DNA from: Candidatus Woesearchaeota archaeon
Lineage (GTDB): Archaea > Nanobdellota > Nanobdellia > Pacearchaeales > GW2011-AR1
Length of the DNA stretch: 64,000 nt
Reading direction: 5' to 3'
Assembly: GCA_964576755.1 (NCBI GenBank)
Contig: CAZNUV010000003.1
Location: forward strand, 30,206 to 94,205
Each line of letters starts with the position of its first letter. The first letter of the stretch is position 1. This document shows positions 25,972 through 55,431 of this stretch, in pieces. Below the pieces are notes generated by a model. That model worked only from the letters and a program-made list of their open reading frames with translations, had not been told where the DNA came from and did not search any database. The translations under genes were made by a program, and so were the position numbers.

Positions 25972-26643
25972 TTATCTACTTTTAATAACACCAACTTGTT
26001 TACATAACTTTGAAACAGGACATATTGAACATTTTGGACTAATTGGTACACATATTGTCTGGCCAAATTGTACAAATAAACTATTAAATTCTGGCCAGTA
26101 TTTTTTTGCCAGAATTTTTGCAACCTCGAGCTCTGTTTGTTCTGGATTTTTTGTTTTTATCAGGCCAAGCCTGTTTGGAATTCTATGACAATGAGTATCA
26201 ATTGGAAGAACAGGTTTGTCAAATGCAAATCCAAGCACAATATTAGCAGTTTTTCTTCCTATGCCCTTTATTGATAAAAGTTCTTCTTCTGTATCAGGAA
26301 CTTTTCCCTTGAAACGCTTAATTAATTCAGATGAAACATGTTTTAGGATTCTGGATTTCTTTTTATAATGTCCAGAACTATAAATCAGTTTTTCAAGTTT
26401 TTTTATTGGCATTTTTACAACCTCTTGGGGGGTTGATGCAATTGCAAATAATTGGCTTGATGCTTTTTCTGTATTTTTATCTTGTGTTCTTAGAGAAAGC
26501 AGGCAAGAAATAAGGATTTTGAAGGGATCTCTTTTTTTCTCGTGTCGCATGTTATTCAGAGTTGTTTTTGTTGAAGGATAATCTTTAAGTAGAATCTTCA
26601 TCACTTTCTCAAATCTTTTTGTTTTTTGTTTTTGATTTTCCAT
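25972..26643 (-). CDS. nth: Endonuclease III (HhH-GPD DNA glycosylase with a 4Fe-4S cluster)
   Basis: HhH LLSIKGIGRKTANIVL, catalytic-region PIDTHCHR, and C-terminal CVPISPKCSICPVSKLC. Confidence 0.88.
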   Translation of the reverse strand: MENQKQKTKRFEKVMKILLKDYPSTKTTLNNMRHEKKRDPFKILISCLLSLRTQDKNTEKASSQLFAIASTPQEVVKMPIKKLEKLIYSSGHYKKKSRILKHVSSELIKRFKGKVPDTEEELLSIKGIGRKTANIVLGFAFDKPVLPIDTHCHRIPNRLGLIKTKNPEQTELEVAKILAKKYWPEFNSLFVQFGQTICVPISPKCSICPVSKLCKQVGVIKSR

Positions 26644-26662
26644 TTTTAGAATTAAAACAAAA

Positions 26663-26755
26663 TGGCCCTGGAGGTCCTAAAAATTTCTTTGAAATTTTTG
26701 GAACTTAAATTCTTACAAATTTAAGTGATTTGAACCCTCTTGTTCAAATCCCAAA
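26663..26755 (-). other. tRNA-Lys trailer carrying an inverted and a direct partial copy of the tRNA T-arm/acceptor 3' strand. The direct copy is split by a 52-nt double-hairpin insert.
   Basis: Minus strand reads TTTGGGATTTGAACAA GAGGGTTCAAATC [ACTTAAATTTGTAAGAATTTAAGT TCCAAAAATTTCAAAGAAATTTTTAGGA] CCTCCAGGGCCA TTTTGTTTT. The 12 nt CCTCCAGGGCCA and GGTTCAAATC are identical to the tRNA 3' end. Confidence 0.6.
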
Positions 26756-26908
26756 TGGCCCTGGAGGGATTTGAACCCCCGACACCTAGGTGACTCTTAT
26801 GTGTTATCTTAAACTATTACAGTTTCTTTGATTCCAGGAACCTTTCTTTTCTAAAGAAAGGGAGCCTATTAAGAGCCTAGTGCTCTAACCAAACTGAGCT
26901 ACAGAGCC
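26756..26908 (-). tRNA. tRNA-Lys (anticodon CUU) with a 78-nt intron at the canonical 37/38 position (intron 26792..26869)
   Basis: Hand-folded: GGCTCTG TA GCTC AGTTTGGTTA GAGC A CTAGG CTCTTA | intron | A CCTAG GTGTC GGGGG TTCAAAT CCCTC CAGGGCC A. BHB-like junction: central helix CTCT/AGAG flanked by 3-nt bulges TAA and TCA. Confidence 0.85.
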
Positions 26909-55148: not shown

Positions 55149-55255
55149 ACTTAACCTTATCACAAGGTATTTTTTCTTTTTATTTAATTTTATTTAATTC
55201 TGATTTATATGAAGTTTTTTAAATAGTACTTCTTAAATATATTATATTATGATTT

Positions 55256-55429
55256 GCTCTCATAGTCTAGTGGCCAAGGATACTGCCCTCTCAAGTAGAG
55301 AGTTTGCGTCGATGAGACAATAAACTCAGTCCTCTTAGGACAACTACAATCTCTGAGAAAATTTCAAGAATTTTCTTCGAGGTGATGCAGGGAACGGCAG
55401 AGACCCGGGTTCAAATCCCGGTGAGAGCA
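55256..55429 (+). tRNA. tRNA-Glu (anticodon CUC) with a 101-nt intron at 37/38 (intron 55294..55394)
   Basis: GCTCTCA TA GTCTAGTGGCCAAGGAT A CTGCC CTCTCA | intron | C GGCAG AGAC CCGGG TTCAAAT CCCGG TGAGAGC A. BHB: helix CTCT/AGGG flanked by bulges CAA and AAC. Confidence 0.85.
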
Positions 55430-55431
55430 TT

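Follow-up and report, generated by a model that had tools for sequence, protein, structure and literature searches.

The 93-nt trailer located behind a tRNA-Lys(CUU) gene (26663-26755 of the window, by which we mean the whole 64,000-nt stretch of DNA analysed here) probably represents a minimal copy of a family of gene-free, target-duplicating mobile cassettes that reside behind the tRNA genes of Nanoarchaeia, a term that covers Woesearchaeota- and Pacearchaeota-type DPANN archaea. The trailer is an insertion and not a local accident, and our search for a published description of this cassette family returned none.

An intron-bearing tRNA-Lys(CUU) gene and its trailer

The tRNA gene itself is complete and carries a 78-nt intron, as an earlier note on this DNA had proposed from the letters alone. 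Rfam recognized 26756..26908 on the minus strand as a tRNA (53.7 bits, E = 1.2e-10) and placed an 80-nt insertion in the anticodon loop; ARAGORN called tRNA-Lys(CTT) with the 78-nt intron when introns were allowed, and missed the gene when they were not. By an explicit rule, the bulge-helix-bulge of this intron is perfect (central helix 4/4, outer 3/3, inner 2/3). Both programs thus find one contiguous, complete gene rather than a split or permuted tRNA. In an Rfam search of the region down to E = 10, tRNA was the sole match, with no family for the cassette. The features are as follows.

26756..26908, minus strand: tRNA-Lys(CUU), intact (Rfam tRNA and ARAGORN -i)
26870-26908, minus strand: tRNA-Lys(CUU) 5' exon (ARAGORN -i)
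26792-26869, minus strand: canonical intron of tRNA-Lys(CUU), 78 nt (ARAGORN -i; bulge-helix-bulge rule)
26756-26791, minus strand: tRNA-Lys(CUU) 3' exon (ARAGORN -i)
26756..26767, minus strand: Y1, tRNA nt 62-73 (CCTCCAGGGCCA), comprising the 3' strands of T-stem and acceptor plus the discriminator (sequence; shuffles)
26753..26755, minus strand: TTT directly 3' of the tRNA (sequence)
26742..26752, minus strand: rc(X), GGGATTTGAAC, tRNA nt 53-63 in reverse complement (sequence; shuffles)
26727..26739, minus strand: X2, GAGGGTTCAAATC, of which the final 11 nt repeat tRNA nt 51-61 in direct orientation (sequence)
26675..26726, minus strand: Z, the conserved 52-nt core with two hairpins (fold, covariance model, covariation)
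26703-26726, minus strand: hairpin 1 of Z (fold)
26675-26702, minus strand: hairpin 2 of Z, with a conserved asymmetric internal loop (fold)
26663..26674, minus strand: Y2, tRNA nt 62-73 repeated exactly (repeat search)
26654..26662, minus strand: T-run TTTTGTTTT (sequence only)

Read on the minus strand, the trailer runs TTT / GGGATTTGAAC / AA / GAGGGTTCAAATC / 52 nt / CCTCCAGGGCCA / TTTTGTTTT. The order given in the earlier note (TTT, inverted T-loop, direct copy, 52-nt insert, tRNA-end copy, T-run) is confirmed, as are the two hairpins of the insert, which abut one another and fold with -13.7 kcal/mol. The whole 254-nt stretch has a folding z of -4.7, and in its minimum-free-energy fold the 5' acceptor strand has the distal copy of the tRNA end as its partner. 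Across the 64-kb window, CCTCCAGGGCCA occurs exactly twice (26663-26674 and 26756-26767), where shuffles expect 0.00; TTT also follows the distal copy, so that the direct repeat is extended on the right by 3 nt to a length of 15 nt. GTTCAAATC has five copies in the window against 1.2 expected per whole window in shuffles, and three of the five fall inside 26727-26776, one of them inverted. Together, rc(X) and X2 form a 9-bp palindrome; in this genome, an inverted copy of this kind was found for tRNA-Lys(CUU) and tRNA-Lys(UUU) and for no other tRNA. Positions 26663-26736, which comprise 10 nt of X2 together with Z and Y2, match the covariance model of the family with 89.8 bits. The T-run ends 10 nt ahead of the nth ATG at 26643 and, judged by its sequence, probably terminates transcription of the tRNA unit.

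Two further claims held in part. A second copy of the T-stem/loop is indeed present, but the true match spans 11 nt (GGGTTCAAATC) and the preceding 'GA' lies outside the duplication. Removal of Z does restore a T-arm in the window copy; however, the perfect T-stem GAGGG/CCCTC is a coincidence of that copy and not a family trait, because tRNA nt ~51-52 is the usual starting point of the copy in the family.

A cassette family with flanks copied from each tRNA

Across the family, four parts make up the unit: the T-loop in inverted orientation, a repeat of tRNA nt ~51-61, the core Z and a second copy of tRNA nt 61/62-73. The core, a pair of hairpins 47-62 nt in length, interrupts the duplicated end of the tRNA at nt 60/61 or 61/62. 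In 19 of 28 copies, the X2 arm measures 10-11 nt. The right flank comprises the tRNA-end copy plus 0-3 nt (sometimes up to 15 nt) of trailer; direct repeats span 12 to 27 nt in other copies. Between the arms of the inverted repeat, the spacer ranges from 1 to 6 nt. By eye, a GAAC end was seen on many of the inverted copies.

With covariance model R1, the cassette was detected in 17 of 61 related genomes, with up to 15 copies per genome and two in the source genome. In relatives, it was first seen behind tRNA-Thr, tRNA-Lys and tRNA-Arg, and later behind many more tRNAs. A pattern scan across species gave 52 matches, spread over 48 loci; 44 of the matches lie in ~25 Woesearchaeota, Pacearchaeota or Nanoarchaeia MAGs, and the eight others come from bacteria and appear to be chance hits, with neither a hairpin 2 nor a tRNA. 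Within 450 nt upstream, a tRNA on the same strand accompanies at least 35 of the 44 archaeal copies; these tRNAs represent at least 12 amino-acid identities, and the cassette nearly always shares the orientation of its tRNA. Some core copies were observed outside tRNA contexts. Both flanks are in every case templated on the tRNA immediately upstream, which is itself intact: the bases 3' of Z agree with the tail of that tRNA, and even odd T-loops are reproduced in X2 (GGTCTGAATC vs GGTCCGAATC in the tRNA). The core sequence, by contrast, is specific to the genome and not to the tRNA, which points to spread within genomes. One genome (G034) contains longer bodies of 120-190 nt between the tRNA and the core. 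The host genomes are 0.4-1.4 Mb in size, that of the source organism being ~0.7 Mb.

Comparison with cassette-free loci documents the insertion. In most family members, the tRNA-Lys(CUU) gene leads straight to a T-rich trailer; in G036 and G017, where this gene is cassette-free, nth still lies downstream in the same orientation. The second Z of the source genome (on contig C11) is a clean 53-nt insertion in the leader of tRNA-Gln(UUG) relative to the leader of the paralogous tRNA-Gln(CUG), and the A/T-rich 3' arm of its hairpin 2 occupies -29..-19 of tRNA-Gln(UUG), the position of the TATA-like box in the paralogous leader. Tandem arrays are found at L026 (three units), L013 (2 x 196 nt), L098 (2 x 90 nt) and L055 (3 x 115 nt, with an inverted core). 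Decayed copies occur at L044, L059 and L082, and distal copies at L078, L082, L083 and L044 carry uncompensated changes in the acceptor strand.

Within the population sampled, the cassette is stable: all five retrieved contigs encoding an identical Nth protein, from five samples, carry an identical cassette. Three of the five break inside the tRNA 3' exon, likely because this sequence is common to tRNA-Lys(CUU) and tRNA-Lys(UUU); the breaks are therefore not evidence of polymorphism. A metagenome scan for the intron-exon junction, aimed at a strain-level empty site, gave no match, and neither free or circular cassette forms nor an empty/filled polymorphism within one species was seen.

Covariation of both hairpins, computed over 67 distinct copies with shuffles and slid controls, is strong. 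Paired cells amount to 94.8% vs 80.4% in shuffles, 16 of 18 pairs are altered on both sides, and compensatory cells number 166 vs 42, with far lower values in the slid controls. RNA-specific selection on the hairpins was considered and rejected on the basis of strand symmetry: the folding energies of the two strands differ by +0.67 kcal/mol (sense minus antisense; p = 0.16), and the G.U counts are 22 vs 29. Without strand bias, the palindromes are equally good as DNA or as RNA.

A model of insertion and its rivals

To account for this anatomy, we propose a core that is mobile at the level of DNA and homes to the T-loop/T-stem boundary of tRNA DNA. Insertion would be coupled to duplication of ~23-26 bp of target, with a fold-back (palindromic) left junction; the 5' side would yield a restored tRNA gene, with the core left behind in the displaced, non-functional copy. 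The responsible enzyme would not be encoded by the cassette. Duplication-coupled insertion is a model that fits the anatomy rather than an observed reaction. Since nothing but TTT lies between tRNA and cassette and a long T-run comes after it, the transcript of the cassette probably forms the 3' trailer of the tRNA, to be removed by tRNase Z; an RNA role is possible, and the data are explained without one. More tentatively, the cassette may be a new type of selfish DNA, namely a gene-free, T-loop-homing, two-hairpin element. Here, each new tRNA would serve as template for two short arms (nt ~51-61 and 62-73), together with the inverted T-loop copy, and ~25 bp of the tRNA gene would be duplicated, so that the gene survives. 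Movement might proceed through a folded single strand or a fold-back replication intermediate, catalysed by a host enzyme or one as yet unrecognised, and copies landing in whole tRNA genes (as in G061) could yield T-arm introns.

Among the 61 genomes, none of three transposase or integrase families (PF01797, PF00589 and PF04986) tracks the cassette. For Y1 transposases (PF01797), genes were detected in 16 of the 61, namely in 8/17 of the cassette-positive and 8/44 of the cassette-negative genomes, and are absent from the source genome and from the cassette-rich G008, G034 and G037. A Y1 gene lies ~1 kb from a cassette in G052, but two small uncharacterised ORFs separate them and the cassette is not an end of this insertion sequence. 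IS91-type Y2 transposases (PF04986) exceed the family cut-off in two of the 61 genomes; an IS91-like GAAC/GTTC target was likewise rejected, with only 6 of 18 in the exact-match tally and the transposase nearly absent. Tyrosine recombinases (PF00589) are nearly universal, although the cassette-rich G008 and G055 gave no match. The source genome has two full-length Xer-like recombinase genes and a 208-codon partial match, located on contigs C1, C7 and C15, with none on the cassette contig. A casposon- or CRISPR-like fixed target duplication would suit the 15-nt repeat, but not the varying repeat length elsewhere or the absence of terminal inverted repeats. As for a viral carrier, a pattern scan of IMG/VR yielded one match, within coding DNA and attributable to chance, and no viral contig with the core.

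The covariation fits a selected RNA equally well, and a functional trailer maintained by selection, whether a small structured RNA or a DNA signal combining the tRNA terminator with the nth promoter, is a reading that we regard as unlikely. The conserved asymmetric internal loop of hairpin 2, the shared orientation with the tRNA and the placement of the C11 hairpin arm at a TATA-like box position would all suit it. So would the short TTT before the cassette and the long T-run after it; in E. coli, transcripts of three tRNA-linked repeats undergo processing and bind both Hfq and CsrA in vitro (PMC8144298). On the other hand, folding shows no strand bias, no Rfam family matches, and the tRNA-Lys(CUU) genes of most relatives manage without a cassette. 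Given the patchy distribution (17/61 genomes), copy-number swings, arrays and decay, a selfish element fits better than a selected trailer. The att-site scar suggested in the earlier note is the nearest of its three alternatives, although we consider it quite improbable that the trailer is an ordinary tyrosine-integrase scar at the tRNA 3' end (attB), its cargo deleted and attL and attR left 93 nt apart as a CIME-like remnant. The insertion is indeed bracketed by a duplicated tRNA 3' end (12 nt plus TTT, exact; chance 0.00), as attL and attR would be, Xer-like recombinases are present in the genome, and the longer bodies in G034 lie between tRNA and core. Yet it is the distal repeat, and not the stretch between the repeats, that holds the conserved core, the inverted T-loop copy adjoins this core, and the 1- to 6-nt spacer of the inverted repeat is unlike a recombinase core site. 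Moreover, an integrase normally keeps one attB, whereas the core of a single genome is found behind many unrelated tRNAs with re-templated flanks; no recombinase gene lies on the cassette contig, and G008 and G055 have cassettes with no PF00589 match.

The idea that the distal copy serves as a working alternative 3' exon, with Z as a non-canonical T-arm intron and the proximal end plus inverted copy as a second intron, so that the pre-tRNA could mature by two routes, was not supported and appears very improbable. It draws on the T-arm and acceptor strand restored by removal of Z from the window copy, on the minimum-free-energy fold, and on one MAG, G061, where Z sits at 61/62 of a tRNA-like gene that has no intact upstream copy and that ARAGORN reads as tRNA-Arg(CCU) after in-silico removal of Z; some DPANN archaea also possess broad-specificity splicing endonucleases (PMC3239211). 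However, none of 22 copies has a 4-bp central helix with at least two outer pairs (means 2.4/4, 1.2/3 and 0.4/3; window copy 3/4, 1/3 and 0/3), whereas seven canonical introns of the source genome, used as positive controls, score 3-4/4 and 3/3. The ends of Z are conserved and the exons variable, distal copies decay with uncompensated acceptor-strand changes, and the full T-stem 5' strand is usually missing from X2. In addition, either route would give an identical mature tRNA, a complete tRNA-Lys(CUU) precedes a distal piece that lacks a 5' half, G061 has a normal second tRNA-Arg(CCU), and none of 104 core matches falls inside a predicted tRNA span. Finally, a one-off neutral local duplication or replication slip without a family, absent in relatives, had been named as a possible outcome; apart from its local appearance nothing favours it, and the recurrence of core and architecture at dozens of loci, in 17 of 61 genomes and ~25 MAGs and behind at least 12 amino-acid identities, leaves its probability close to nil.

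Significance and comparison with known systems

Genes for tRNAs are classic landing sites for mobile DNA, among it integrative elements with tyrosine integrases (Williams, 2002). To our knowledge, the known mechanisms require an integrase and a fixed target. Here, a gene-free hairpin core of ~50 nt is found behind many tRNA identities, with flanks that are re-copied and an essential tRNA gene that is spared. If target-duplicating insertion is correct, it would be a new mode of DNA movement, could amount to natural short-arm, programmable insertion, and may offer a route to non-canonical T-arm introns. The cassettes are also an annotation hazard, as they produce tRNA fragments, and shared tRNA ends break assemblies.

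Integrative elements that target tRNA genes and duplicate attL/attR (Islander, PMC4383910), together with the tRNA gene fragments they are associated with (PMC9897764), resemble the cassette in that the tRNA is preserved, its 3' part recurs, displaced, downstream of the insert, as in cargo-less remnants, and repeated events generate arrays of tRNA-end copies. Unlike these elements, the cassette has neither integrase nor cargo, and its conserved part lies inside the displaced copy. It is not tied to one target (at least 12 amino-acid identities), and its flanks (10-11 and 12-13 nt) are regular in length and re-copied per target.

REP/REPIN sequences, IS200/IS605-derived palindromes, Rickettsia palindromic elements and other hairpin MITEs are similarly tiny, gene-free and hairpin-shaped, and share with the cassette its multiple copies, patchy occurrence, compensatory changes and some copies outside tRNA contexts. 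In contrast to these families, the cassette is not correlated with Y1 (RAYT/TnpA) or Y2 genes, lacks terminal inverted repeats and has a ~23-26-bp duplication of a specific tRNA segment with an inverted junction. The non-canonical tRNA introns of archaea, for which transposition has been proposed (Fujishima et al., 2010, as covered in the review PMC4090602), are likewise short structured inserts at a T-arm position, with related inserts in different tRNAs. The cassette differs in having no bulge-helix-bulge and in sitting in a redundant partial copy rather than in a working gene.

The closest known system, by analogy, appears to be the unexplained tRNA-linked repeats of E. coli (Egan and Landy, 1978; Rudd, 1999; summarised in PMC8144298), exemplified by the repeats after tyrT-tyrV (rtT). 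In that summary, they are short non-coding units, single or tandem, directly 3' of a tRNA or rRNA gene, with a 3' end that equals the 3' end of the upstream gene (18-19 bp in E. coli); their origin and function are described as obscure, and some are transcribed and processed. The cassette shows no sequence or Rfam (rtT) relationship to them down to E = 10, a conserved two-hairpin core interrupts its duplicated tRNA end (nt 60/61 or 61/62), an inverted T-loop copy precedes that end, its hosts are archaea, and its core is common to many tRNA identities. It nonetheless lies directly 3' of a tRNA and ends in a copy of the tRNA end (12-15 bp), and may thus provide an archaeal counterpart to repeats that have been unexplained since 1978.

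The tRNA-Lys(CUU) gene and its trailer

The duplication of the tRNA end behind tRNA-Lys(CUU) is real and goes beyond chance. On the minus strand, the trailer reads TTT, GGGATTTGAAC, AA, GAGGGTTCAAATC, 52 nt, CCTCCAGGGCCA and TTTTGTTTT; the ATG of nth (endonuclease III; Pfam HhH-GPD) lies 10 bases beyond. The 12-mer copying the tRNA 3' end is present twice in the window (0.00 expected), and of five window copies of GTTCAAATC, three fall within 50 bases here (26727-26776), one of them inverted. This layout, which an earlier note had read as TTT, inverted copy, direct copy, insert, tRNA end and T-run, matched the sequence exactly, and folding bore out the two hairpins proposed for the 52-nt insert, which are predicted to abut. 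The second T-stem/loop copy does exist as a direct copy, but its genuine match to the tRNA spans 11 nt. The perfect GAGGG/CCCTC T-stem expected on removal of the insert proved to be an accident of the window copy when the anatomy of 28 copies was compared.

tRNA genes with introns
26756..26908, minus strand: complete tRNA-Lys(CUU); Rfam tRNA model 53.7 bits, E = 1.2e-10
55255-55430, plus strand: tRNA-Glu(CUC) with a 101-nt intron (ARAGORN, introns allowed)
C2:84198-84389 (another contig of the same genome): tRNA-Thr(GGU) intron locus, intron 119 nt

The earlier reading of a complete tRNA-Lys(CUU) with a 78-nt intron was confirmed by the Rfam score and by ARAGORN with introns allowed; the program misses the gene without introns, and the Rfam alignment shows the anticodon loop expanded by a long insert. 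By an explicit rule, this intron scores as a textbook case of the bulge-helix-bulge, with 4/4 in the central helix, 3/3 in the anticodon stem and 2/3 in the inner helix. Long introns occur in two of the three tRNA genes of the window, Glu(CUC) and Lys(CUU), neither of which was detected under ARAGORN default settings. An intron-allowing search gave only 34 tRNAs across the genome, none of them tRNA-Ala. The introns of tRNA-Lys(CUU) (26792-26869, minus) and tRNA-Thr(GGU) have a 49-nt segment in common (46/49 identical, TTAGAAAAGAAAGGTTCCTGGAATCAAAGAAACTGTAATAGTTTAAGA), parts of which also match loci in the related genomes G037, G026 and G013; the segment has the look of an intron module that is shared or mobile.

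Distribution, anatomy and structure of the cassette

The window trailer is a minimal, fixed member of a tRNA-linked hairpin cassette family of Nanoarchaeia, one that is apparently undescribed. When 60 related genomes were searched at the DNA level, stretches spanning the T-arm, inverted copy, insert and second tRNA end turned up behind other tRNAs, which rules out a local accident. The same architecture was read behind tRNA-Thr(UGU) in G037, G042 and G034 and behind tRNA-Lys(CUU) in G018, and at these loci the bases following the insert are those of the locus's own tRNA 3' end, not lysine's. A covariance model (R1) of the core, the conserved two-hairpin insert, with 10 and 13 flanking columns matched 17 of 61 genomes, with at most 15 copies per genome and two in the window's genome. 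Scanning one genome per prokaryotic species with a pattern for the T-loop/hairpin-1 junction yielded 52 matches, spread over 48 loci, of which 44 belong to about 25 MAGs with a Woesearchaeota, Pacearchaeota, Nanoarchaeota or Nanoarchaeia label. The eight from bacteria, all of which are without second hairpin and tRNA, look like chance. Of the 44 archaeal copies, at least 35 lie no more than 450 nt downstream of a tRNA on the same strand; the tRNAs concerned are Lys, Thr, Ile, Asp, Arg, Ser, Gln, Leu, Val, Phe, Glu and Trp, with many anticodons.

The anatomy of the unit was derived from 28 distinct hairpin-1-type copies having an upstream tRNA. The first arm, ahead of the core, copies tRNA nt ~51 to 60/61 and measures 10-11 nt in 19 of the 28. 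In 18 of the 28, the T-loop region recurs in inverted form before this arm; in short copies, the two form a palindrome with a spacer of 1-6 nt. The arm 3' of the core copies tRNA nt 61/62 to 73. The repeat usually extends 0-3 nt into the trailer, sometimes 5-19 nt or, in tandem arrays, a whole further unit; extensions of 8-15 nt were read by hand at three loci (L005, L031, L042). The first arm tracks tRNA-specific T-loop variants (TTCGATT, TTCGAAT, TTCAATT and an odd TCCGAAT) and is therefore copied from the target rather than carried by the element. Cores are alike across different tRNAs within one genome and unlike between genomes, a pattern that points to within-genome spread in which the flanks would be re-templated at each event.

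For 67 distinct copies aligned to the model, a fitted alignment that leans the numbers towards structure, 94.8% of cells are paired versus 80.4% in shuffles, 16 of 18 pairs have both-side changes, and compensatory cells number 166 versus 42 in shuffles; sliding the partner by one column lowers pairing to 51-63%. Copies read by hand have the same covariation pattern. Hairpin 2 carries a conserved asymmetric internal loop, one base versus two, above a covarying 3-bp closing stem. An RNA-specific structure was rejected, as folding energies and G.U counts are equal on both strands and fit a DNA or RNA role alike. Separately, three loci (L034, L045 and L047, in G055 and G024) have core-like double hairpins immediately 5' of GGAGGT, 8-9 nt and ATG, and therefore in protein-gene 5' leaders, with no tRNA nearby.

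Insertion, turnover and alternative readings

Comparison among relatives identifies the cassette as an insertion. In the same family, most tRNA-Lys(CUU) genes pass directly from the discriminator to a T-rich trailer, and cassette-free loci in G036 and G017 still have nth downstream in the same orientation. Other relatives hold remnants, namely the inverted copy alone in some and a mostly deleted core at L011. The cassette is fixed in the present population: five contigs encoding an identical Nth were retrieved, from five samples, and every one has it unchanged. Independent assemblies from three other samples (L152-L154) all break inside the tRNA-Lys(CUU) 3' exon, likely because the two Lys tRNAs share 3' exon sequence; shared tRNA ends thus fragment assemblies.

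Related loci in the window's genome
C5:41485-41575: tRNA-Lys(UUU) with an inverted T-loop copy and neither core nor second tRNA end
C11:10529-10581, minus strand: second core copy, in the leader of tRNA-Gln(UUG), without tRNA-derived flanks

tRNA-Lys(UUU) shares its 3' half with tRNA-Lys(CUU), and the lone inverted copy in its trailer (TTTAATTTGAAC), found at no other tRNA of this genome, is perhaps a relic or else the product of a first step. Compared with the leader of the paralogous tRNA-Gln(CUG), the C11 copy stands out as a clean insertion of 53 nt. Its A/T-rich 3' arm of hairpin 2 lies at -29..-19 of tRNA-Gln(UUG), the position of the paralogue's TATA-like box, so an outward promoter effect of the cassette on nth is conceivable. 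Directly 5' of tRNA-Gln(CUG) itself stand three tandem 46-nt repeats (C5:30611-30760, minus), each with GGGAAAGTTCATAAGAAAACC. Arrays of two or three units behind a single tRNA are common, and several distal copies have accumulated 1-4 uncompensated differences from their own tRNA. Behind tRNA-Lys(CUU) in G034, an array of 3 x 115 nt (L055, G034:C18:17559-17863) has the core inverted and adjoining tRNA nt 53-73 copied without interruption, so that the same parts are arranged in a second way. At L035 (G025:C7), a partial copy of the 5' end of tRNA-Thr(UGU) (GCCTGTGTAGCTCAATGGCA) precedes that gene, and a single hairpin and two further 3'-end copies lie downstream.

The earlier note had also entertained an alternative 3' exon or non-canonical intron. 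A bulge-helix-bulge was found in 0 of 22 copies, whereas the genome's canonical introns form one, and none of 104 core matches lies within a predicted tRNA span; these results speak against both variants. Moreover, core ends are conserved while the putative exons vary, the full T-stem strand is usually missing from the first arm, and decayed acceptor copies are uncompensated. A single point favours an intron: the Woesearchaeota MAG G061 has the core at nt 61/62 of a tRNA-like gene with no intact copy upstream. Here (L096 and L116, CAZOEF010000001.1), three ~250-nt units, paralogous and conserved in their flanks, contain one such gene apiece, with a 9-12-bp extended acceptor-like stem, and one unit is called tRNA-Arg(CCU) by ARAGORN after in silico removal of the core. 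A normal tRNA-Arg(CCU) is also present in this genome, and splicing is therefore not required. The att scar of an ordinary integrase, likewise proposed earlier, was rejected: the displaced copy contains the conserved part, the targets are many different tRNAs, and the window's contig has no recombinase gene; nor was a tyrosine recombinase found in two cassette-rich genomes. Derivation from IS200/IS605, REP or IS91 was dismissed as well, as the occurrence of Y1 and Y2 transposase genes does not follow that of the cassette.

Proposed mechanism and known counterparts

Insertion with fixed anatomy, regular target-derived arms, an inverted junction, an intact 5' tRNA, arrays with decay and genome-specific cores are the facts beneath our model. 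In its simplest form, an element acting at the DNA level would recognise the boundary between T-loop and T-stem within tRNA DNA. Insertion of the element would go together with duplication of ~23-26 bp (tRNA nt ~51-73) and a fold-back on the left side, such that the essential tRNA gene is regenerated and the core ends up in the displaced copy. Repeated events, or unequal recombination between duplicated tRNA ends, could then yield arrays and solo remnants; host replication or repair activity on folded single strands would be as likely an agent as a dedicated transposase. With TTT alone after the tRNA and TTTTGTTTT after the cassette, the latter probably forms a transcribed trailer that tRNase Z removes.

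No description of the cassette was found in the literature on DPANN integrative elements and attachment sites, on tRNA-linked repeats, or on Woesearchaeota/Nanoarchaeota tRNA introns and T-loops, or in a recent survey of complete Nanobdellota genomes. The closest described counterpart is the tRNA-linked repeats of E. coli, units that immediately follow a tRNA or rRNA gene and repeat that gene's 3' end in their final 18-19 bp, some of them transcribed and processed (PMC8144298). The cassette falls within their operational definition, although the two have no sequence or Rfam relationship. It adds features not so described for the E. coli repeats: a core that interrupts the copied tRNA end at a constant position and is common to many tRNA identities, and an inverted T-loop copy. 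We rate it as kin in kind to tRNA-linked repeats, or to tRNA-end duplication by insertions.
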